Shown: positions 1,997 through 14,664 of the stretch, one piece after another
How positions within the stretch are numbered: position 1 is the first letter of the stretch
Layout of the letters: each line of letters begins with the position of its first letter
NCBI GenBank assembly: GCA_965238075.1
Contig: OZ250173.1
Location: 224,001-288,000, forward strand
Direction of reading: 5' to 3'
DNA: 64,000 nt
Source of the DNA: Candidatus Entotheonellaceae bacterium
Lineage (GTDB): Bacteria > Tectomicrobia > Entotheonellia > Entotheonellales > Entotheonellaceae
Notes under the pieces: model-generated
What the model was told of the DNA's origin: nothing
The model's database searches: none
What the model saw: only the letters and a program-made list of their open reading frames with translations
Translations under genes and position numbers: made by a program

Positions 1997-4081
1997 ATGA
2001 GAAGCTACCGCTATTCGCGCTGGGATGGGACGCAGGAATCGTTACCGGTCGACGGTGAAGACCTGATGGAGGCCATGGCGGACGATCTGGCGTCGCACGG
2101 CGATCTCCGTCAGGCGCTGCGCAACCTGATGCAACGCGGCATGCAGGGGCGCATGGGCAGCGGTTTCGAGGGCATTCGGGAGATGATGGAGCGCCTCAAG
2201 CAGCAGAGCCGCGAGCGACTGGAGCGCTATAACCTGGCGTCGCTGGTGGATGAATTGAAGGAACGTCTGGACGACATTATTCGGGAGGAGAAGGAGACGC
2301 TGAGCCCGCCGCCGCAACAGGGGCAACAGGACGAAGAGGCCGCAACCGGCTCTCAGGCGTCGGACGGCGAATCGGCAGATAGGGCTGCTCAGCAGGGCGG
2401 GCAACAGGGGGCTTCCGCCGAGGCATCAGACCGGGCCGGCCAGGCGGGAAGCGGCGACAATCAGCAACGCCGGGAATTCATGGACCAATTGCCGCAAGAT
2501 TTCGCCGGCCGCGTCAAGGCCCTACAGCCTTACAACTTCTTGGACCCGCAGGCGCAGCAGGCTTTCGACGAACTGATGGAAATGCTCAAGCAGCAGGCCA
2601 TGGGCAACGCCATGCGTGACATGGCGCAGCGCTTTGCCGACATGTCCCCCGAAGAGCGGCAGCGTTTGAAGGAAATGATCGCCGATCTGAACCGCATGCT
2701 GGACCAGCAGGTGTGGGGCGAGCAGCCCGATTTCGACGGCTTCATGCAGAAATATGGGGACATGTTTGGCCCCAACCCGCCGCAGAGCCTGGAAGAACTG
2801 ACCCAGCAGATGGCATCGCGTATGGCGCAAATGCAATCGCTCTTCAACAGCCTACCCGAGGACCTGCGGCAAGAGCTTCAGGAGATGCTCAGCGCCGCCT
2901 TCGAGGATGAAGGATTGGCGGCCGAAATGGCGGAATTACAGGCCAATCTCGATTTCCTTGCTGCCGATGAACGGCCTTCTTATGAGTTCAGCGGCGACGC
3001 CGACGTGCCGCTGGAGCAGGCCATGCACCTGATGGACGAGTTGCAGAAGGTCGATGCCTTGCAGCAGCAGTTGCAAGATGTGGGCAAGGCCGGCTCCCTG
3101 CAGGACGTTGATGCCGAGACGCTGGAAGCCATTCTCGGCCCCGAGGGGCGCCAGGAATTGGAAAAGCTACGCGAACTTGAACGCCGCCTGGAGGAAGCCG
3201 GCTATCTGAAACGTCAGGGCGACCGCCTCGAACTGACCGCCAAGGGCGTTCGCAAAATCGGCTCTAAGGTGCTCCGAGACATCTTCAACCGACTCAAGAT
3301 CGGCCGCCACGGCGGGCACCCCACCGAGCGACGCGGCATCGGCATCGAAGCACGCCTCGACACCAAGGCCTACGAATACGGCGACCATTTCAGCCTGCAT
3401 TTGCAGCAGAGCCTGATGAACGCCGTGCAGCGCCAGGGCAAGGGTACCCCGGTGCGCATTCTGCCTGAGGATTTCGAGGTGTATCGGGATGAGAACCTGA
3501 ACCAGTGCTCCACCGTGCTGATGCTGGATCAGAGCCGGTCGATGGGGCTGAACGGCTGCTTCGACGCCGCCAAGAAGGTGGCGCTGGCCTTGCACAGTCT
3601 GATCAAGATGCAGTACCCAAGGGATCACCTGTACGTCATTGGGTTTGCCGAGTACGCCAGCGAGTTGCGCCACGAGGACATCCCGTCATCGTCCTGGGGC
3701 AGCTACTATCCGGGCACCAACATGCACCACGCCCTGATGATCGCCCGGCGCCTGCTGTCGCGCTCGCGGCATGGCCAGCGGCAGGTGCTGATGGTCACCG
3801 ACGGCGAACCGACCGCCCACCTCGAACAAAACCTGGCCTACTTCAACTATCCTCCCACTTGGCGGACCATCGAGCAAACGCTGCAGGAGGTCAAACGCTG
3901 CACTCGTGAGGGCATCGTGATCAACACGTTCATGATGGAGCAGGATCCGTACCTGATGCGGTTCGTGCAGGAAATCACCAAGATCAACCGCGGGCGGGCG
4001 TTCTTCTCCTCCCCCAGCCACCTGGGGCAGTACGTCGTCACCGATTACCTCAATAACAAGCGTCGGCGGCGCATTGCGTGA
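1997..4081 (+). CDS. VWA-domain protein with long helical Q/E/M-rich N-terminus
   Basis: N-terminal YRYSRWDGTQ. C-terminal MIDAS elements DQSRSM, GTN and VTDGEP. GGAGG RBS. Confidence 0.88.
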   Translation: MRSYRYSRWDGTQESLPVDGEDLMEAMADDLASHGDLRQALRNLMQRGMQGRMGSGFEGIREMMERLKQQSRERLERYNLASLVDELKERLDDIIREEKETLSPPPQQGQQDEEAATGSQASDGESADRAAQQGGQQGASAEASDRAGQAGSGDNQQRREFMDQLPQDFAGRVKALQPYNFLDPQAQQAFDELMEMLKQQAMGNAMRDMAQRFADMSPEERQRLKEMIADLNRMLDQQVWGEQPDFDGFMQKYGDMFGPNPPQSLEELTQQMASRMAQMQSLFNSLPEDLRQELQEMLSAAFEDEGLAAEMAELQANLDFLAADERPSYEFSGDADVPLEQAMHLMDELQKVDALQQQLQDVGKAGSLQDVDAETLEAILGPEGRQELEKLRELERRLEEAGYLKRQGDRLELTAKGVRKIGSKVLRDIFNRLKIGRHGGHPTERRGIGIEARLDTKAYEYGDHFSLHLQQSLMNAVQRQGKGTPVRILPEDFEVYRDENLNQCSTVLMLDQSRSMGLNGCFDAAKKVALALHSLIKMQYPRDHLYVIGFAEYASELRHEDIPSSSWGSYYPGTNMHHALMIARRLLSRSRHGQRQVLMVTDGEPTAHLEQNLAYFNYPPTWRTIEQTLQEVKRCTREGIVINTFMMEQDPYLMRFVQEITKINRGRAFFSSPSHLGQYVVTDYLNNKRRRRIA

Positions 4082-4146
4082 AGCAGTGGTTCGTGAACAA
4101 TGGGTGGTGATCAGTGTTGGTCACTGGCCATTTATCACTGGTTACT

Positions 4147-5133
4147 TCAGCGGATTTTCCCCTCGATGTGAGTCAGCGTGAAAGTACTGCCAGGCTTGCG
4201 GGGATAGACGATTATGCGGGCCCGCGACAGCGTTTTCTCCACCGTTTCCAACCACAACCGTCCCTTCGATACCTGCGGTGAGGTGCGCACCTGCTCGGCG
4301 AGCTTGACGAAGCGCTGTGCGGCGCCGTGGGCTGCGTTGACCACCTCGCTGCGATAAATTTCCGCTTCCTGCCGAATCCGGTGGGCCTGTGCACGGGCAC
4401 GTGGCAGCAGGTCCTTGGCATAGCCGTCGGCGACATTCATGAGGCGCTGGCGGTCCGCCTTGGCGCTGGACACGTCGTTGAAGGCGGCGATGACGTTTGG
4501 CGGCGGATTGTCCTCGACGATGTTCACCGACACCACCTGCAGCCCGAGTCCCATGGCATCGACCAGTTCCTGGATCAGCACCCGCGATTCTTCCTGGATG
4601 CGCGCCTTGCCGCTGGACAGCACGTCGTCCACCTTCATGCGCGCTACCAGGAAAGTCAGGACGCTCTCGGCGGCCTTGCGCAGCGCCATGTCGCGGGGCT
4701 GTCCGTCACTGAAATCGGCGACGCGAAACAGGTAATCGGCCGGCGACTTGATGATATATTGAATCGCCGTCTGCATTTCGACGATGTTGGTGTCGCCGGT
4801 GAGCCATTGCACCTCTTCCTCCATCGCCACCTTGTCCGCTTGTTCAGCCTCCAGATAGCTGAAGCCGACGGCCATGGTTCGCACCTCGGTGGTGCGCACG
4901 AGGCGCATGGTTTCCAGCGGGTACGGTAGGATGAAGTGCATGCCGGCAGGCAGGATGCTCCGCACGCGGCCAAAGCGCAGCAAAACGCCCTGCTCGTTCT
5001 GCTTCACCACCCAGACGCCGGTGACGGCCATGTGCGCGATGAGGGCGACGAGCAAAACCGGCAGCAAGTACCAGCCGCGCAGCCGCATGCCAAAGCGGCC
5101 GTTGCGGGCCGATGGCGTGGTATCAGGCGTCAT
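4147..5133 (-). CDS. hflK: HflK-like SPFH protein
   Basis: Single N-terminal TM; GVLLRFGR, LTGDTNIV, PPPNVIAAFNDVSSAKAD, AEIYRSEVVNAAHGAAQRF, RLWLETVE. Confidence 0.9.
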   Translation of the reverse strand: MTPDTTPSARNGRFGMRLRGWYLLPVLLVALIAHMAVTGVWVVKQNEQGVLLRFGRVRSILPAGMHFILPYPLETMRLVRTTEVRTMAVGFSYLEAEQADKVAMEEEVQWLTGDTNIVEMQTAIQYIIKSPADYLFRVADFSDGQPRDMALRKAAESVLTFLVARMKVDDVLSSGKARIQEESRVLIQELVDAMGLGLQVVSVNIVEDNPPPNVIAAFNDVSSAKADRQRLMNVADGYAKDLLPRARAQAHRIRQEAEIYRSEVVNAAHGAAQRFVKLAEQVRTSPQVSKGRLWLETVEKTLSRARIIVYPRKPGSTFTLTHIEGKIR

Positions 5134-6092
5134 TGTGCGGCTCCTTCCTGCTGTTCCGTAAGGCGCTTCAGGCTGTCGACAGCGTCGCCGACACGCTCGG
5201 GCACGCCATCGCCGAAAGCCGCTGGGGATTGCAGCACCTTGAGCAATTCAGCGTCGCTTGGCACCACGATGGTGGAGCTTTCGCCGATGATGTTCTGGTA
5301 CGCCTCCAACGAGCGCACGAACTCGAAGAATTCCGGGTCCTGCCCAAACGCCTCGGCGTAAATGCGGGTGGCCTCGGCGTCGGCCTCGCCGCGAATCTCC
5401 TCGGCCTGGCGGCGCGCCTCGTTGAGCAGCACGGCTGCCTCGCGATCGGCGCTGGCGCGAATCTTCTCGGCCTCTTCCTCGCCCTCGGAGCGATACAGCC
5501 GCGCAATACGCTGGCGTTCGGCTTCCATGCGGCGAAACACCGCCTGCTTGTTCTGCGGCGGGAAATTGAGGCGCTTGATGCGCACCGCGGCGATGTGCAC
5601 GCCGAAGTTGGCGCTGGCGCGTTGCGCGGTCTTGCGGGTGATGTCGCGCATCACGTCGGCCATCGTCTGGTCCTGCTCTTCGGTCGATACCAAGGCCGAC
5701 AGCGGATAAGCTCCGAGCGTCGTGCCGACTTCCGAGCGCATGATGTCCGTCAGCCGCGCCTCGGCGCTGTTCTTGTCGGTAAGGCTGACCAGATAGCGCA
5801 GCGGATCGGCCACCGACCAGACGAGGAAATTGCTCACCAGGATGTTTTTCTTGTCTGAGGTCAGGTACTCGCCGGGCTCGGGGTCGAGCACGTTGGTGCG
5901 CCGGTCGATGCGCAACAGGGTGTCGATGGGCGGCGGCCACTTGAAATGCAGCCCCGCTTGGTCGATCACCCGCCGCGGGTCGCCGAATCGCGCCACAATG
6001 GCATACTCGGTTTCCTGCACCTGGAAGGTACCTGCAAAAGCGACGAGCGCTATCACAACCACCACGCCTATCACGATTAGAACGCTTCGCAT
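5130..6092 (-). CDS. hflC: HflC-like SPFH protein
   Basis: AIVARFGDP, LTSDKKNILV, VFRRMEAERQRIARLYRSEGEEEAEKIRA, DPEFFEFVRSLEAY. Overlaps hflK by 4 bp. Confidence 0.93.
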   Translation of the reverse strand: MRSVLIVIGVVVVIALVAFAGTFQVQETEYAIVARFGDPRRVIDQAGLHFKWPPPIDTLLRIDRRTNVLDPEPGEYLTSDKKNILVSNFLVWSVADPLRYLVSLTDKNSAEARLTDIMRSEVGTTLGAYPLSALVSTEEQDQTMADVMRDITRKTAQRASANFGVHIAAVRIKRLNFPPQNKQAVFRRMEAERQRIARLYRSEGEEEAEKIRASADREAAVLLNEARRQAEEIRGEADAEATRIYAEAFGQDPEFFEFVRSLEAYQNIIGESSTIVVPSDAELLKVLQSPAAFGDGVPERVGDAVDSLKRLTEQQEGAAQ

Positions 6093-6164
6093 GTCATGAG
6101 CTCCAAATGGCAGTGGTTCGTGAAAAGTGAATAGGGGTTGGTTCTCGCCTTTGCTGGCCGCTCA

Positions 6165-8270
6165 TCACTTTCCATCACGGATGTTCCAAAGATCGACTTC
6201 GACGTCATCGCCCAGCAGGAACAACCCCTTGACGCCCTGCAAGGCGCTCTCGATGGTATCGAAATACAGTCGCCGCCGGGTCAGCGCCTCGTTGTTGCGG
6301 TATGCGTTCAGGCGCGACAGGAAGGACGTCCCCTGCCCTTTCGCTCCGTTGAGTTTCTCGCTTCTAAAGCTCTCGGCCTCCTGGATGAACGAAAACGCTT
6401 GGGCGCGCGCCGCGGCCACGGTTTCGGAGTGATAGCCCTCGGCCTGCCGGATTTTGCGTGCCCGGTCCTCCAGTGAACTGGCGACGTCGCGGAACGCCTC
6501 GTGCACGGCAGCCGGGGCGTGAGCGTCGAGCAGATTCACGGCCACCGCGCGAATGCCACTGCCAACAGCGTCGAGTTCGGCTTGCAGGGCGGCCAGAACC
6601 TCCTGCTCGATGGCGGCTCTGTCGGTTACCAGAACTTCCGACGACGAGCGGTGCGCCACCGTCTGGCGCACGGCCCACTCGGCAAAGGTGCGCACCACCG
6701 CGGCGGGCTCGGCCACCCGGTATTTGTAGGCATAGGGCCCACTAACGCTGAAGTGAACGGTATAGAAAAGGCTGAGAATGTTCTCCTCGCCGCTCATCAC
6801 TTGGGCGGCGTCGATCAGGTCCTCACGGTCGGAGCGTTCGATGTCGATGCGATTGGCAGCGCGCAGGAAGCCCTGGTCGAGGCTACGCACTTCGTTGGTG
6901 CGCAGCCGGGTGACGCGGTCGATCGGCAGCGGCAGGTGGACGTACAAACCGGGCGCCTCAAGAGCGCGCACGACGCGCCCGAAGCGCACCACCCAGGCAG
7001 CTTCGCCCGGACCGACCACGGAGAACGCGGTGGAGACGTATAGCGCGACGACAACGATGACGGCGGCGATTCGGAAGGCGGGAGACAGGGGATCGAATCC
7101 CAGCGGCGCGCAGAACGCCCGCACACGCTCGACCGTGTAGGGACCTAGCCCCATGCGGACGGTGCTGAAGACCAGCAGGTAGACGAACAGCACCGCCGCG
7201 GCGATGTCGAGCGGCGACAAGCCGCTTTCCACGACCTGGGCAACAATCGCCGCGAGGTCCACCGCGAAATAGCTGTAGACGGCGTTGATCAACAGGCCCA
7301 GCAACAAAGCACTGCCGGTGACCCCGAGCAGGTGCACCACCAAAACCCGCCGGCCGAGCAAGCGCGCAATAATGGCGATGGTGGTGGCATTGGTCGCCGG
7401 CCCCACCAGCAGCAGCACCAGGGCGGCGCCGGGGTCCAGCCCTTTGGCGATCAATGTGGCGGCCACCGGCGTGGCGGCGGCGGCGCAGATGTACATCGGT
7501 GTGCCAATCAGCAGCATCAGCACCGACGACACGAACCCCGCGGGAATGACGGACCCGAAGAAGTCATCGGGGACAAGAATGGCGATCAGCCCGGACACCA
7601 GCAGGCCGATGATCAGCCACACCGTCAAGTCGTCCAACAGCGGCCCGAAAGCGTAAGTCATCGAATCCCGTGCCACGTCCTTGACCGAGCGTTTGCCGAC
7701 GCCGCCCGGCGTGTATACGGTGCTGTGATCGTGCCCGTGATCGTGGGCGAGGTCATGAGTCTCAGCGGGTAATGCCTCGGTATCCCCATCCCAACCCCGT
7801 CGCACCACGAAATTGACCACCGAGCCGGTGAACACCGCGGTGGCGAACGCTCCTAGCGGCCGCGCCACCGTCATGATGGGGTCGAGCAGCGCGTACGTGA
7901 TGCCGATGGAATCCAGCCCCGTTTCGGGTGTGGAGATCAGGAAGGACGTCGTCGCGCCCTTGCTCGCCCCGCTGCGCCGTAGCGACGTCGCCACCGGCAG
8001 CACCGAGCACGAGCACAGCGGCAGCGGAATGCCGAACAGGGACGCTAAGGTCACCGACTTGAGCCGGTTCTCGCCGAGGTGCTTGTAGACTTTGTCCTCT
8101 GGCACAATCGCCTTCAGCACTCCCGCCAGCGCAAAACCGATCAACAGATACGGCGCCGACTCCGCCACCAGCGTCAGCATGACCCCAAAATAGTCGTTCC
8201 ACAGAAACCCGCAGACGCCCATCCCAAGAACGCAAATGCCGAGCGTGATCCCATGCCGTCGCCAAGGCAT
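6165..8270 (-). CDS. DUF318/ArsP (SO_0444-like) metal permease fused to a C-terminal HflK-like SPFH domain
   Basis: N-terminal half has ESAPYLLIG, PLPLCSCSVLP, FLISTPETGLDS, a His-rich loop HDLAHDHGHDH, PMYICAAAATP and GPATN. C-terminal half has VVRFGRVV...PGL, GEENI, VHEAFRDVASS and RRLYFDTIE. One continuous ORF. Confidence 0.87.
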   Translation of the reverse strand: MPWRRHGITLGICVLGMGVCGFLWNDYFGVMLTLVAESAPYLLIGFALAGVLKAIVPEDKVYKHLGENRLKSVTLASLFGIPLPLCSCSVLPVATSLRRSGASKGATTSFLISTPETGLDSIGITYALLDPIMTVARPLGAFATAVFTGSVVNFVVRRGWDGDTEALPAETHDLAHDHGHDHSTVYTPGGVGKRSVKDVARDSMTYAFGPLLDDLTVWLIIGLLVSGLIAILVPDDFFGSVIPAGFVSSVLMLLIGTPMYICAAAATPVAATLIAKGLDPGAALVLLLVGPATNATTIAIIARLLGRRVLVVHLLGVTGSALLLGLLINAVYSYFAVDLAAIVAQVVESGLSPLDIAAAVLFVYLLVFSTVRMGLGPYTVERVRAFCAPLGFDPLSPAFRIAAVIVVVALYVSTAFSVVGPGEAAWVVRFGRVVRALEAPGLYVHLPLPIDRVTRLRTNEVRSLDQGFLRAANRIDIERSDREDLIDAAQVMSGEENILSLFYTVHFSVSGPYAYKYRVAEPAAVVRTFAEWAVRQTVAHRSSSEVLVTDRAAIEQEVLAALQAELDAVGSGIRAVAVNLLDAHAPAAVHEAFRDVASSLEDRARKIRQAEGYHSETVAAARAQAFSFIQEAESFRSEKLNGAKGQGTSFLSRLNAYRNNEALTRRRLYFDTIESALQGVKGLFLLGDDVEVDLWNIRDGK

Positions 8271-8469
8271 AGCGGTTCCTCCATTGGTCTAACGGTCCTC
8301 GTGAAGCCGCATCGGCCCAGACTTTCTGCGCGCGGCGGGCACTGCGCATTCTATAGGCATGACGGCCACAATGACAATTTCAAAACGGTTCAGCGCAGAA
8401 TGACTGGGCAGATCGGGCGCTTGGTGAAAGCGACGTGAAAACAGTGGCCGCCACTGCCGCCAGCGCAGC

Positions 8470-8966
8470 CGCAGCCATCAAGTCTCACCGCCGGGGCGCT
8501 TGCCGTCACAAGACCTCTAACATCGACATCGGCGACTGGGGGATGCTGAGCTTTGGCGGCATCCTTTCCCTCACCACCGCTTGGGACAAACAGGAATTGC
8601 GCGGGGCGCCGAAGATTGCGCTGACAAACGGGGGCGCCACGGTCTGATCGGCGCTCCACCCCAGTTTGTCGGTGTCGAATCCCAGGCGCTGATGGCGGAC
8701 AACGCCCATGACAGCAACGACTTGCGCGCCCAGTTGCAAGCCCGTGGCGCTACCGCGGTGATCTCTGCCAAGGCGGAATCGCGTCACGGAGATCGAAGAC
8801 GACTCGGAGATGTACAAGGGACAGCATTTCGCGGGGAATTTCTTCTGTCAACGGAAAGGCTTCGGTCGCCTTGCAAGGCGCTTCGAGAAGACCGATGTCA
8901 GCTACGCCGCGCTGATTCATGTGGTGAGTTCTCGCTTGGCGCTTGCCTGAATATCCACGGGCCCCA
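8470..8966 (+). mobile_element. Degenerate IS5-family transposase remnant
   Basis: Frameshifted pieces read RHGLIGAPP...QALMADNAHDSNDLRAQLQARGATAVI, then GFGRLARRFEKTDVSYAALIHVVSSRLALA*. Ends with IS5-like AATATCCACGGGCCC. Left boundary is approximate. Confidence 0.75.
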
Positions 8967-8983
8967 AAACCCGCCTGGGGCCC
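8959..8983 (-). terminator. GC-rich hairpin just downstream of the P450 stop codon
   Basis: GGGCCCCA-9 nt-TGGGGCCC perfect 8-bp stem; no strong U-tract on the minus strand. Confidence 0.4.
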
Positions 8984-8984
8984 T

Positions 8985-10337
8985 TTACAGGTTAGCAGCC
9001 GTGCGTATCACCGGCAGACCGCCCGATGGGGCAAACGTAATGCTGCGCCGCACCACGCGTACCGTGTAGCTCGGGTCCGGGCGCAAGACCACGCGCAGCA
9101 ACATCCGAGCCAAGACGATTTTCATCTCGTAGGTGGCAAACGCCGCACCGAGGCAGTGGCGCAATCCGCCGCCAAACGGAAAGAAGGTGTAAGGATCAAC
9201 GCGTCTGTCGACGAAGCGTTCGGGCTTGAATGTCTCGGGCTCCGGCCAGACGTCTGGCCGCCGATGGGTGAGGTAGATGCACGGCGACACGACGCAACCG
9301 GCCGGCAGGTCGCAGTCGCCAATACGCATTGGCGTTTCGAGATAGCGTGTGACGATAGGCAAGATGGGATCGAGGCGGGCCGTTTCTTTAATGACGGCGT
9401 CCAGATAGCTGAGTTCGGCGATCTGCTCCGCCATGTGCTCGGAGCCTTGCGATCCATTCCCGATCACCGACGCTACCTCGGTCTGAGCGGTCGCCAGCAC
9501 GTCGGGGTTTTGTAGCAGGCGGTGTACCGCCCACGACAGCGAGGTGGCCGTGGTTTCATGCCCCGCCACCAGCATGGTGATCATTTCATCCCGGATTTCG
9601 TCGTCGCTCATGGGCTGACCGTCTTCGTCGCGGGCGGCGACGAGCATGGCCATGATGTCGGTGCGCTCTTCGAGAGCTGCCGTCCTGCGCCGGGCAATTT
9701 CGTCGTACAGCAGCCGGTTGATTTCACGGCTAAGCTCGCCGATCCGTTTCCAGGCCGTGAGCGGTCCCAGATTGACTTGCAGCCGGCGAATCAGCAGCAG
9801 CGGGCTACTGCCGACCAGCCTCAGAAACTCGACCAGCAGCACGCGGAGACGAGACAGCATTTCGCCCTCGTCCACCCCGAACACCGTCCGCAGAATGATA
9901 TCCAGGGTGATTTGCTGCATATGCTTATGAATCGGAAAAACGTGTTCAACCGGCCAATCATCGATCGAGCGATCCACAATTTCACGCATGATACCGCCGT
10001 ACAGCCGCATCCGCTCGCCGTGAAACGGCGGCATGAGCAGTTTGCGCTCGCGCCGATGCCGCGCCCCATCCAGGAGCAGGAGCGAGTTGGGACCGAAGAC
10101 GGGTCTCAGGATTTCGTTGCCGCGTCCGGCGCGCAGGGTCTCGGGATCGCCGGTGAAGATCTCTTTGATGGCGGCCGGTTGACTGAAAAATACCAACGGC
10201 GGCGCGCCGATCAGGCGTATCGTAAACGCGTCGCCGTAAGCCTCGGCGCACCCCTGCATGAACGGAATTGGCTTCCAAATCCACTTAAGCGTTTGAAAGG
10301 GACGCGGACTTCTTGGACCGGTTGGCAGGGCAGGCAT
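8985..10337 (-). CDS. Cytochrome P450 (CYP110/CYP135-like)
   Basis: AGHETT I-helix, ETAR (ExxR), PERF and haem motif FPFGGGLRHCLG. Likely start is MPALPTGP. Confidence 0.95.
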   Translation of the reverse strand: MPALPTGPRSPRPFQTLKWIWKPIPFMQGCAEAYGDAFTIRLIGAPPLVFFSQPAAIKEIFTGDPETLRAGRGNEILRPVFGPNSLLLLDGARHRRERKLLMPPFHGERMRLYGGIMREIVDRSIDDWPVEHVFPIHKHMQQITLDIILRTVFGVDEGEMLSRLRVLLVEFLRLVGSSPLLLIRRLQVNLGPLTAWKRIGELSREINRLLYDEIARRRTAALEERTDIMAMLVAARDEDGQPMSDDEIRDEMITMLVAGHETTATSLSWAVHRLLQNPDVLATAQTEVASVIGNGSQGSEHMAEQIAELSYLDAVIKETARLDPILPIVTRYLETPMRIGDCDLPAGCVVSPCIYLTHRRPDVWPEPETFKPERFVDRRVDPYTFFPFGGGLRHCLGAAFATYEMKIVLARMLLRVVLRPDPSYTVRVVRRSITFAPSGGLPVIRTAANL

Positions 10338-10747
10338 GACTGAAAACCGCCATACGTAGGAGGTAAAGCAAATCTGGCTTGGTAACGGCACGCCGAGCTC
10401 AGCAGGCGGCGCTCGTTGCCAGGGCCGAGTGGCGAAATTCTTTTTTCTATCACCCTGCCCCGAAGCCAGAGAGTCAATATATGGTGAACGGTGATTCGCG
10501 TCCCCAATACTTCGGACAGTTTGGACAGCAAGGCGGCCCCACGAGTTCGCCAAATCTATAGTTGTGTCGCCCAACGCAACCGAGAATGGCGGCGTTGAAA
10601 TCAAGGGGTCTGGCAGAAATTGCCGGTGCAGGCAAAACGTCGTCGCAGAGACGCCAACTCCGGAAAGCTCGTTATCCCAAACGGGATGCACTTCAGATGC
10701 CAGGGAGAGTATGAAACAGGCCGGATCTTCCGACAATCTCGACCAGC

Positions 10748-11818: not shown

Positions 11819-13528
11819 CTACCTGCTGAAGGTGAACATGATACTTCCATGCTCAAGGGGATGGTCGTCGGGGGCTGAGCCAAAGCTCGGCATCCCGCCA
11901 CCGGCGATGGTGACATATTGTTTGCCGTCCACCATGTAGGTGATCGGCGCCGCCTTGAAAGTTACACCGGCGCTGAAGGTCCAGAGGATTTCCCCAGTGC
12001 TGGCGTCCACGGCGTGCATGATACCGCCCGCGCTGCCGTACATGGTCAAACCGCCGGCAGTGGTCAGCATGCCACCGGAGTAGCCGTCCTTGGATTTCTG
12101 GTCGCGCCAGGTTTCCTGCCCGGTTGCCGCATTCACTGCCTTATTCAGTTCATAGCCGCCGGGCGGCAGTTCAAACGTCGCACCAACCAACTGCACGTTG
12201 CTCGTCGTCTGAACCTTCTCGAACCCCCACAGCATGCCCATCTCGCGCGCCGACAGATAGATCATGCCGGTTTGCGGGTTGTAGGCCGGCGGATACATGT
12301 TCACGCCACCCAGCAGGCTGGGCCATACCTCCACCGGAGCCTCGCCTTCCTGCGGGATGGTCTGGGTCCAGACGGGCTTGCCATCGTTGGTGAACCCCGA
12401 CGCCCAGGTAATGCGGTCCGAAAACGGCGTCGCTTTCAGGAACTTGCCGGTTTTAGCATCCATGTAGCTGATAAATCCGGTCTTGTTCGGTTGCACCACC
12501 GTTTTCCGGCCATCGATGGTAATGACCAAAGGCACTTGCATGGTGTCGTAATCGTAGGGATCGCCAGGCACAACGGTGTAGCGCCAGGCGACCTTGCCGG
12601 TCTCCGTGTCGACGGCCACCACGGCGGCGGCTCCGACGTTCTCGTAGTCACCGCCGCCGCGGCCTTGCCTGTCGCTGTACGGCGTATACGGGTAGGCATT
12701 CGCGGTACCGGTATAGTACATCTTCAGCTCGGGGTCCCAACTGCCGGTAATCCACGGGCCGGCACCGCCGTAATCCCGGCTGTCCCCCGGCCAGCTTTCG
12801 TAGCCCGGCTCCCCAGGTCCGGGAATCATGTTCGCCGACCACAGCAGCTCGCCGGTCTCCGGGTCAACGGAGTCCACAAAGCCGGGCTTGCCGCCCATGT
12901 CGGAAGCGTTCATGGGCAGAAGGACCTGGCCCGGAATCACCAGGGGTCCCACGGTGGTCAGGTAGCCGCCCGCGTCGTCCGATGATTCGTACGTGCGCGG
13001 GTACTCCCGTATCTGTTTGGAGAACATCACCTCGCCGGTCTTGTAGTGGAGCGCGTGCAGGACGTTGTCATTGGAGAGGAAGTAGATCTTGTCCTGGTAG
13101 ATCGCCACGCTGCGGTGCTTGTTCGTCAGGAAATCGTTGAACTGCCAGTGGCCCCAATCTTCGGGTAGTTCGTGCTCGAATTTCCACGCCCGCCTTCCGG
13201 TACGCGCGTCGATCGCATGCACCTTGTTGTCCAGCGGGATGTAAAGCAGGCCGTCGTGGTAGATAGGATTGGACTGCAGGCCGGTAACGCCGCCAAGGGC
13301 GAGCGCCCAGGCCACGTTGAGGTCCTGAACGTTGCTCGTATTGATCTGTGTGAGTGTGCTGTGCCGAGTGGCGTGCCAGTCACCGTGGACGTGCAGCCAT
13401 TCTTCGCCCGCCGGCTGCGCCAGCGCTTCATCCCGCACCGGGAACGCCTGGGCACCGCCGATCATCAGCATGAGCAAGGAAACCACCATCAGTAACCCAG
13501 ACACGCGCTTGAAAATACCACTACTCAT
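11819..13528 (-). CDS. Periplasmic PQQ-dependent dehydrogenase (alcohol dehydrogenase fold), possibly lanthanide-dependent
   Basis: Signal peptide; RHSTLTQINTSNVQDLNVAW; Trp-docking repeats (TGxxxW); GGAGPWITGSWDPEL; DPYDYD; APITYMVDGKQYV. Confidence 0.92.
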   Translation of the reverse strand: MSSGIFKRVSGLLMVVSLLMLMIGGAQAFPVRDEALAQPAGEEWLHVHGDWHATRHSTLTQINTSNVQDLNVAWALALGGVTGLQSNPIYHDGLLYIPLDNKVHAIDARTGRRAWKFEHELPEDWGHWQFNDFLTNKHRSVAIYQDKIYFLSNDNVLHALHYKTGEVMFSKQIREYPRTYESSDDAGGYLTTVGPLVIPGQVLLPMNASDMGGKPGFVDSVDPETGELLWSANMIPGPGEPGYESWPGDSRDYGGAGPWITGSWDPELKMYYTGTANAYPYTPYSDRQGRGGGDYENVGAAAVVAVDTETGKVAWRYTVVPGDPYDYDTMQVPLVITIDGRKTVVQPNKTGFISYMDAKTGKFLKATPFSDRITWASGFTNDGKPVWTQTIPQEGEAPVEVWPSLLGGVNMYPPAYNPQTGMIYLSAREMGMLWGFEKVQTTSNVQLVGATFELPPGGYELNKAVNAATGQETWRDQKSKDGYSGGMLTTAGGLTMYGSAGGIMHAVDASTGEILWTFSAGVTFKAAPITYMVDGKQYVTIAGGGMPSFGSAPDDHPLEHGSIMFTFSR

Positions 13529-13650
13529 GATCCCTCTCTCCTTACTTGCCAAAGGGTCATAGCTCAGAACGTTGTAAAGAACAAACCTGAAAGGCCGTCT
13601 AGCAGAAGCCCGGAGGGAAGTCAAGGACGTATCGGCCTCACAGTAGGGCA

Positions 13651-14664
13651 TTATTTCTTCGCCGCCGGCGCGGGGCGCTGCCGCGGGATGCCGAAATTTT
13701 CGGCGATCTTGTAGGCGGCTTTCGCCTTGTTGCGGTAGGCGATGACGTTCTGCGTGTGCAGCGCTCGGTTCGTGCTGCTGCCGCGCTTGGCATCGGCAAG
13801 CAAGGTATAGGCATCGCCCAGATGCTTGTGCACGGTGCCATACTCGCGGGGCGAGGTCTCGGCGTCCAGTTGGTTCGCCGCCCTGTCAAACTGGTCGATG
13901 GCCCGTTTTAAGTTACGGCTGGCGCCGTTTCCCCGCGCCAGAATGAGGTAGGCCAAGCCCGTGTTGGTGTAGGTTGCCCCAAGGGTGGCGGCGTCTGGTG
14001 CCGCCACCAGCGCCGCCCGCGCCTGCTCGTAGAACTGCAGGGCTTGCTCCATGCTCGAATTACCCGCCTGATGGAGGTCCCGGTGTACGTTGCCAAGGCG
14101 GTTGAGCGTTTGTGCCTGTGCCACCGCATCGGAATCGGCCGCATGCAGCCCGAGGGCAGCTTGGTAGGCTTCGATCGCTTTGTCTGCAAGCTCCGATCTG
14201 GCCTCGACCTGAAAGTGCCGCCGGTACGCATCTCCCAGGTGGCTCTGGACGCTGGCATAGGCTGCGGCGAAGGCGTTGACAGGAAGAAGCTCCAGCGCCT
14301 CTTGAAACGCCGCCACCGCCTGGGCGAGATGGCCTTGCGGGTCACCCTGGTCCGCAAGTCCCAGATAGCACAGGCCCACCTGTTCCGCGATTTGCCCCTT
14401 GCTCTCACGTGTCAGATCGGCATCGAAGGTTCGCAGAACGTGTTGGTAATCCTCCAAAGCGCGAGCGAACTTGCCGCGCTCGTATCGCCCCTCCGCGCGG
14501 TGGACGGCATCGGCGATCCGTGCCTCCAGGGCAGCACGCTGTCGCGGACGGATGGTATGATGAATGTAATTCGTGACGGCCCCCATGGCGGCGCCCAGAC
14601 CAACCAGAATGAGCACCGCAAGAATCCACGGGTGCCGATTCAGCACCCATCGCACCTCAGGCAT
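13651..14664 (-). CDS. Membrane-anchored TPR-repeat protein
   Basis: N-terminal TM followed by repeated TPR helices (LGDAY, LGNVH, TGLAY, AxxxYxxAL). Confidence 0.8.
   Translation of the reverse strand: MPEVRWVLNRHPWILAVLILVGLGAAMGAVTNYIHHTIRPRQRAALEARIADAVHRAEGRYERGKFARALEDYQHVLRTFDADLTRESKGQIAEQVGLCYLGLADQGDPQGHLAQAVAAFQEALELLPVNAFAAAYASVQSHLGDAYRRHFQVEARSELADKAIEAYQAALGLHAADSDAVAQAQTLNRLGNVHRDLHQAGNSSMEQALQFYEQARAALVAAPDAATLGATYTNTGLAYLILARGNGASRNLKRAIDQFDRAANQLDAETSPREYGTVHKHLGDAYTLLADAKRGSSTNRALHTQNVIAYRNKAKAAYKIAENFGIPRQRPAPAAKK

Follow-up and report, generated by a model that had tools for sequence, protein, structure and literature searches.

In a 64-kb stretch of the genome of a Candidatus Entotheonellaceae bacterium (assembly GCA_965238075.1, contig OZ250173.1; C1:224001-288000, called the window in the following), three tightly packed adjacent open reading frames (ORFs) on the minus strand (positions 4147-8270) encode proteins of the HflK/HflC type, one of which carries an entire permease domain at its N-terminus. 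This fusion gene of an SO_0444/ArsP-type permease and an HflK-type SPFH protein (6165-8270) is a single stop-free ORF of 701 amino acids (aa). After a spacing of 72 nt it is followed by hflC (5130-6092, 320 aa), and the stop of hflC overlaps with the start of a free hflK (K2; 4147-5133, 328 aa) in the sequence ATGA. All three ORFs were recovered exactly where they had been called beforehand, and all three proteins exceed the curated cut-offs of their NCBIfam families. HflC reaches 208.5 bits with TIGR01932 (cut-off 134.4) and has E. coli HflC as the best solved match (E 1.4e-47), whereas the free HflK reaches 205.7 bits with TIGR01933 (cut-off 159.4) and aligns to residues 79-352 of E. coli HflK (E 2.9e-36). 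No match to FtsH was found in the 64 kb of the window; the two full ftsH genes of the genome are located at C1:3151370 and C1:2936123.

The N-terminal part of the fusion protein matches Pfam ArsP_1 (PF03773, residues 30-329) with an E-value of 2.6e-46 and 158.6 bits (gathering cut-off 32.3). The NCBIfam model SO_0444 (NF033936) covers residues 32-367 with 362.4 bits, above the equivalog cut-off of 300 and over profile positions 2-348 of 351, whereas the score for the SaoE model stays well below its cut-off (138 vs 325). The C-terminal part matches Pfam Band_7 (PF01145, residues 418-612, E 1e-16) and, with a marginal 162.1 bits (cut-off 159.4), the hflK model TIGR01933 at residues 416-685; it aligns to residues 142-340 of E. 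coli HflK (E 2.1e-20). The permease domain extends from residue 30 to 373 (7152-8183, like all features of the protein on the minus strand). It contains the motif PLCSCSV (residues 84-90; 8001-8021) in a short helix-loop-helix, and C86, S87 and C88 do not vary among 15 aligned fusions (A1) or among 34 aligned fused and unfused permeases (A4). Cys-Ser-Cys is described as the signature of the SO_0444 family (preprint 10.1101/2022.07.06.499078). C262 in a second motif, PMYICA (residues 258-263; 7482-7499), is likewise invariant in both alignments. The His-rich sequence HDLAHDHGHDH (residues 172-182; 7725-7757) lies in a long central loop of variable length, which is rich in K+R and D/E. A ninth hydrophobic segment (residues 354-375; 7146-7211), still within the SO_0444 family profile, would return the chain to the cytoplasmic side, and an Arg-rich linker with the motif APLGFDPLS (7083-7109) follows, in which G391 is invariant and P394 and S396 are conserved to at least 90%. 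The linker leads into an HflK-type transmembrane anchor (residues 399-419; 7014-7076) and then into the SPFH domains, the coiled coil and the C-terminal segment of the fused HflK (6168-7022). The first-pass annotation, made from the sequence alone, had described an uninterrupted 701-aa ORF with these Cys and His motifs, followed by hflC and a free hflK in a window without ftsH, and this description holds in every point.

To orient the fusion protein in the membrane, we counted positively charged residues in the loops of the 15 aligned fusions. The mean number of K+R is 3.1 in loop 1, 2.7 in loop 2, 5.3 in loop 4 (the His loop), 2.5 in loop 7 and 4.7 in the linker, and 0, 0.3, 1.0 and 1.3 in loops 3, 5, 6 and 8, respectively. 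By the positive-inside rule, these counts would predict a cytoplasmic linker and His loop and, as for E. coli HflK, a periplasmic SPFH part. They can be accommodated only if the two segments with the conserved Cys residues, 70-99 (PLCSCSV) and 246-275 (PMYICA), form re-entrant hairpins 1 and 2 and do not span the membrane fully. A permease-only model built from the 34-row alignment (pLDDT 84, pTM 0.82) resembles elevator-type transporters of the ion transporter superfamily with two hairpins, and its matches include ArsB (10TP_A, Z 13.6, 278 residues aligned), YdaH (4R0C, Z 13.6), VcINDY (4F35, Z 11.8) and the TRAP transporter SiaQM (8B01, Z 11.6). The 13 best fold matches are all of the elevator type, after which Z falls to 5.2, although a Z of about 13 is possible for helical bundles by arrangement alone. 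In contrast to the predicted fold, a relation in sequence between these transporters and the permease is undetectable; no solved structure in the PDB matches the permease part by sequence, and Foldseek with the permease model gave nothing at E <= 0.001 (best E 7.7e-3). The ArsP family has been placed in the TOG superfamily with a topology of 4+4 segments (PMC7176098, in excerpt), from which our permease model differs. The model of the full-length fusion is weaker (pLDDT 69), with HflK chains as the closest matches of its SPFH part (E 7e-11). A complex prediction of fused HflK (residues 395-701), HflC and free HflK with their own alignments gave a score of 0.01 (mark 0.32), which is neutral on binding.

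The fusion of permease and HflK is real and conserved. Proteins with both PF03773 and PF01145, for which a search had been suggested by the first-pass annotation, make up 118 of the 120 best database relatives with full coverage and at identities as low as 43%; the other two relatives, of 510 and 487 aa, are short. The organisms named among these relatives are Tectomicrobia, Planctomycetota and Gemmatimonadetes, and the nearest genomes are Candidatus Entotheonella/Tectimicrobiota assemblies with 91-92% identity. In the phylum of the window, 9 of 17 genomes contain a full-length fused match and a tenth a partial one with a TGA. A match with E <= 1e-90 is present in 11 of 251 sampled Planctomycetota genomes, and nine of these cover nearly the whole query. 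Furthermore, we fetched 80 metagenome loci with the alignment of the 15 fusions. In 41 of them the permease is fused to HflK, always in one frame and stop-free between the domains. RNA libraries of two studies yielded contigs that cover the operon and cross the junction of the two domains (X19 record 22, 6898-7219; X20 record 27, 6137-7181), with zero indels listed within 4147-8270. SO_0444 itself and the remaining 39 metagenome relatives have no fused SPFH part within the available sequence and no adjoining hflKC on the same strand; ten of the 39 loci end less than 600 nt past the permease and are not assignable for this reason. The window protein shares with the SO_0444 family the score above the cut-off, the CSC and the second Cys motif and a His-rich loop, and differs in that its C-terminus runs on into HflK.

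The partners are conserved together with the fusion. The order fusion-hflC-hflK was also found in Entotheonella genomes and in one Planctomycetota genome (42-50% identity). Among the fused metagenome loci, hflC lies behind the fusion in 32 of 34 with at least 1000 nt of downstream sequence, and both hflC and hflK in 22 of 23 with at least 2100 nt. One locus (L119) was counted as a miss by the parsing rule and contains both genes further along. For the unfused permeases, nearby HflC/HflK genes were seen only in L085 and L103, where they are canonical genes encoded on the other strand. These results support the view that the three genes are a conserved module and not a chance neighbourhood. Upstream of the module, a gene of the FmdA/AmdA family with a hydrophobic N-terminus directly precedes the fusion in 21 of 47 fused loci, among them the second module of the host genome (see below), and an extra HflC is located ahead of this FmdA-like gene in 6 of the 16 loci with enough upstream sequence. 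In four of the 47 fused loci (L020, L041, L050, L077), the gene next upstream in the same orientation encodes a ZIP zinc transporter, as it does for four unfused permeases (L080, L088, L110, L113), and four of the 47 have an adjacent ZnuA/ZnuC/ZnuB set. Counts of neighbouring genes are lower bounds, as many contigs end early.

Phylogenetic analysis separates the module proteins from the canonical ones. We calculated a FastTree of 124 SPFH regions and later IQ-TREE quick trees with SH-aLRT support, in which each row took its label from its place in the locus and not from its best hit. HflC-type and HflK-type proteins are split with a support of 100 in the FastTree. The 39 fused HflK parts form one clade (SH-aLRT 83, and 95 without eight near-identical rows), the 26 free module HflKs form another (63, then 82), and canonical HflKs are placed outside of both. 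The module HflCs, including the extra upstream copies, group in one clade (48 rows, support 92) that is separate from canonical HflC. Taken together, the trees support that the module HflC and both module HflKs are lineages apart from the canonical proteins. The second hflK of the first-pass annotation is thus present as a free gene, and in the trees it belongs to a paralogue lineage of its own instead of being a simple second copy.

The strongest argument for a functional link between the SPFH proteins and a transporter comes from a second cargo. When the fused HflK part alone was searched against longer proteins, 75 permease fusions and one 999-aa protein (P0125) were retrieved. The latter consists of a heavy-metal P1B-type ATPase (TIGR01525, 563.6 bits, residues 79-620) and HflK (TIGR01933, 209 bits, residues 683-967). 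With the HflK part of P0125 as query, 683 proteins were obtained, and PF00702 and PF01145 occur together in all 120 of those listed, which by their names are mostly from Acidobacteria/Bryobacterales and in one case from Gemmataceae. Three of the 251 Planctomycetota genomes also contain an ATPase-HflK fusion (L124, L125, L126), and in all three loci it is followed by hflC and hflK, the last gene being cut by the contig end in one of them. The rooted quick tree joins the HflKs with a fused ATPase (11 rows, 93) and those with a fused permease (31 rows, 95) as sister groups with an SH-aLRT of 91, and canonical HflK is sister to this pair (94); for the free HflKs, a common group of the two module types is weakly supported (39). 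Both kinds of fusion have an N-terminal heavy-metal exporter type ahead of HflK and the same layout of hflC and hflK behind it, and they differ in that the second cargo is an unrelated ATP-driven pump with a different linker motif. A linker motif common to permease and P1B-ATPase fusions was sought and none was found; APLGFDPLS is confined to the permease fusions. Two unrelated families of heavy-metal exporters are thus attached to one HflK lineage in the same three-gene arrangement.

The host genome contains three HflK/C systems. In addition to the window module, a second module is located about 43 kb upstream of the window (C1:180493-186968; L015 4493-10968, minus strand) with the order HflC-like protein (325 aa), FmdA/AmdA-family protein (360 aa, hydrophobic N-terminus), 741-aa fusion (SO_0444 374.2 bits, hflK 176 bits), hflC and hflK, of which the last three genes occupy C1:180493-184796. 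It was found in this genome only among six genomes of the genus. The window fusion and the second fusion fall into the two deepest subclades of the fused-HflK clade (supports 99 and 87) and therefore do not stem from a recent duplication. The third system is a canonical pair at about C1:2504575-2506789 with an hflK of 288.9 bits and an hflC of 258.7 bits, so that a separate canonical hflKC locus, proposed earlier as a point to check, does exist. A further HflK match at another locus is present in all nine genomes of the phylum with a full fusion and in the Planctomycetota genome of L020.

What could such a module be for? HflK and HflC of E. coli build a cage of 12 heterodimers around FtsH (PMC12005517, in excerpt), and the window proteins resemble them in the SPFH1/2 domains, the coiled coil and the C-terminal segment, in the side-by-side arrangement of HflK and HflC, in the SPFH part predicted to be periplasmic behind one N-terminal anchor, and in being their best matches in sequence and fold (7VHP, 7WI3, 9CZ2). 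In contrast to the E. coli pair, the window module has a nine-segment permease on one HflK and comprises three paralogues instead of two. A parallel for a transporter inside an SPFH enclosure is given by eukaryotic stomatin cages, which enclose channels and transporters such as AQP1 and UT-B (PMC12407830; PMC13724742, both in excerpt). Stomatin (PDB 9ZD2) holds its cargo non-covalently under a cytosolic, homo-oligomeric dome, whereas in the window module the cargo would be part of the polypeptide of a cage subunit, with an SPFH part predicted on the periplasmic side. For the metal side, SO_0444 of Shewanella oneidensis is needed for growth under ZnSO4 or CuCl2 stress, was complemented, and its gene adjoins that of a ZntR-like regulator (PMC3219624, in excerpt). 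The family assignment, the invariant Cys motifs and the zinc-transporter neighbours lend some support to a putative metal role of the fused permease.

We therefore consider it rather probable that the products of the three genes form an HflK/C-type SPFH membrane assembly of their own, which is separate from canonical HflKC and has a metal exporter covalently attached to it. In such an assembly, one HflK paralogue would carry a thiol- and His-rich export permease of the Zn/Cu type as covalent N-terminal cargo. The nine membrane segments of the permease would end in the cytoplasm and be connected by the short Arg-rich linker to a normal HflK anchor, which would bring the SPFH and coiled-coil part into the periplasm. 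Here the fused HflK might pair with the module HflC and with the cargo-free HflK as E. coli HflK and HflC do, and the resulting ring or cage would fence a membrane patch with a fixed and limited number of exporters, the cargo-free HflK filling the remaining HflK positions. The purpose could be the control of the lipid surroundings of the exporter, which would matter for an elevator mechanism, of its number or stability, or of its access to FtsH and proteolysis. The idea of a transporter-carrying cage had already been put forward in the first-pass annotation; a conserved module apart from canonical hflKC fits it, whereas the vesicle that was offered there as another possible form gained no support.

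Several points weigh against this interpretation. Binding among the three proteins, closure into a 24-mer, a position of the permease inside the cage, exclusion of FtsH, and the kind of metal and the direction of its transport are all putative. The fused part passes the hflK cut-off only narrowly and has an insertion (residues 467-498) that is poorly modelled. For SO_0444, efflux was deduced from fitness and complementation data and not from transport assays (PMC3219624). As ZIP and ZnuABC are importers, they are odd neighbours for an exporter and may indicate another direction or role. A metal-sensing regulator of the MerR, ArsR or Fur type was absent among ten upstream ORFs from ten fused loci, five of which have no Pfam family and the others of which are unrelated enzymes or a LytTR regulator, and the window's own locus has no neighbouring metal gene, ZIP, ZnuABC or FmdA-like gene. 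The RNA-library contigs are a mere hint of expression and do not prove transcription, because such libraries can hold DNA. The phylogenies are quick trees in which several branches are long, and support for the deep nodes is only moderate and in several cases weak (39-75). One fused locus, L055 on a metagenome contig of 4731 nt, has no hflC within 1997 nt downstream. The fused HflK of L055 is near-identical to that of L060, a locus with both partners.

Among the alternatives, a coupling to FtsH deserves most attention. The HflK part might dock the exporter into an FtsH-containing complex for degradation or quality control, for instance at low metal. HflK/C is a known FtsH partner and forms a cage around it (PMC12005517, in excerpt; bioRxiv 2024.08.09.604662), the host genome has two ftsH genes, and canonical HflK is sister to the cargo-carrying HflKs in the rooted quick tree (SH-aLRT 94). 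However, a fusion that simply joined the canonical complex would not need its own HflC and second HflK, which are kept nearly everywhere. Furthermore, no ftsH was found in 90 module or related loci, which is weak evidence since canonical hflKC is not usually linked to ftsH either. With regard to the FtsH contact at HflK Arg191 (bioRxiv 2024.08.09.604662), no Arg is aligned at this position and Arg residues are found nearby at 185 and 193, the mapping being uncertain. On this basis we regard an FtsH-coupled turnover of the exporter as unlikely.

The substrate and the direction of transport are a question largely separate from those of the cage, of FtsH and of regulation. The permease could move an organoarsenical or another thiophile, feed metal to periplasmic enzymes or import metal. 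The founding member of Pfam ArsP_1 exports organoarsenicals (TC 2.A.119; PMC7176098, in excerpt), and ArsB as the best fold match of the model points in the same direction, as do the importers among the neighbouring genes and the secreted-looking FmdA-like amidase for the other variants. On the other side, metal export is favoured by the SO_0444 assignment together with the failure to reach the SaoE cut-off, and by the second kind of cargo, a P1B-type ATPase for the export of heavy metals, and ars genes were not seen beside the loci, although no search was aimed at them. We therefore judge a different substrate or direction to be improbable.

It seems a little less probable still that the SPFH proteins act as local regulators, i.e., as small oligomers or open arcs which would act on the gating or the stability of the transporter directly and leave the membrane around it unfenced. 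Transporters of the elevator type respond sensitively when a scaffold domain is anchored, and the predicted permease fold resembles this type. Dimers of the stomatin domain are reported to modulate ASIC channels (PMC3433786), and open 'nautilus' forms of HflK/C exist (bioRxiv 2024.08.09.604662). Yet the parts that build the cage in E. coli HflK/HflC have aligned counterparts in the coiled coil and the C-terminal segment of the fused HflK, HflC and the free HflK, and three conserved paralogues exceed the needs of a simple regulator. Finally, an error in sequencing or assembly that joined two neighbouring genes was rejected as practically impossible, given that fused ORFs occur independently in 41 metagenome contigs, in nine genomes of the phylum and in 11 genomes of Planctomycetota, and that RNA-library contigs of two studies span the junction without indels.

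The dedicated assembly with a tethered exporter is consequently the interpretation that we prefer, and it bears on the role of bacterial SPFH cages beyond the enclosure of FtsH. Few SPFH assemblies have a known cargo; in this module the gene of a putative cage subunit itself encodes it, with dedicated partners, in several phyla and with two unrelated transporter families. The module is a defined and expressible three-gene system for asking by what means an SPFH cage chooses a membrane transporter, sets its number and affects its behaviour, whether such cages can function free of FtsH, and why metal export would profit from a fenced patch. A further-reaching idea, to which we assign a small chance, is a distinct class of SPFH microcompartments in several phyla, with three paralogues and two exporter families in the wall polypeptide, which would be free of FtsH and discharge metal into a periplasmic chamber, where it might be buffered or passed to enclosed clients such as the FmdA-like enzyme, whose gene precedes the fusion in one large subclade. 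All parts of the module are from known families and the sequences are already in the databases under one name or other. The permease fusions are called either 'HflK protein' or 'SO_0444 family Cu/Zn efflux transporter' and the ATPase fusions either 'FtsH protease activity modulator HflK' or 'cadmium-translocating P-type ATPase' or Cd/Cu ATPase, never both, and these names can now be corrected. In a literature search, which did not extend to subscription journals and supplements, neither fusions of HflK with a permease or an ATPase nor a three-paralogue module were found described.

Some additional observations concern the relatives of the module. A Verrucomicrobia metagenome-assembled genome (L028, 5416-10515) encodes a 537-aa protein in which a multi-span N-terminal region without Pfam family is joined to HflK; next to it are hflC and an apparently frame-shifted HflK-like gene, and then a P-type ATPase (E1-E2_ATPase and Hydrolase) whose long N-terminus is rich in His. 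The locus may represent a third type of cargo or an unfused version of the same theme. Two unfused SO_0444-type permeases (L079 1826-2845 and L092 3436-4449) have a single in-frame TGA in the central loop (GCG*P), which may encode selenocysteine at a site other than the reported USC motif of the family. Because of a stop codon, L079 and L092 are not among the rows of A4, and L067 was left out of a further alignment (A3) for the same reason. Beside the second module of the host genome, IS3-like transposase ORFs are located (L015 2709-3865).

In the window itself, the fusion protein begins with an extra hydrophobic segment ahead of the permease domain (residues 8-24; 8199-8249, minus strand), preceded by RR, which is also present in the Tectomicrobia-type relatives P0061 and P0067 and missing in the other 12 fusions of A1. 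A single match to a sigma-70-like promoter, some 78 nt ahead of the start of the fusion gene (8348-8377, minus strand), is at chance level (one found, 0.9 expected), terminator-like sites around the operon are not above those of shuffled sequences, and Rfam gave zero matches over 3900-9200. The surrounding genes do not appear, by eye, to be related to metals: upstream of the fusion are a 583-aa ORF with a P450-like FGGGLRHCLG motif (8985-10736, minus strand) and, further away, a 610-aa ORF (11819-13651, minus strand), and on the other side an acidic, coiled-coil-rich ORF of 694 aa on the plus strand (1997-4081) converges on the operon.

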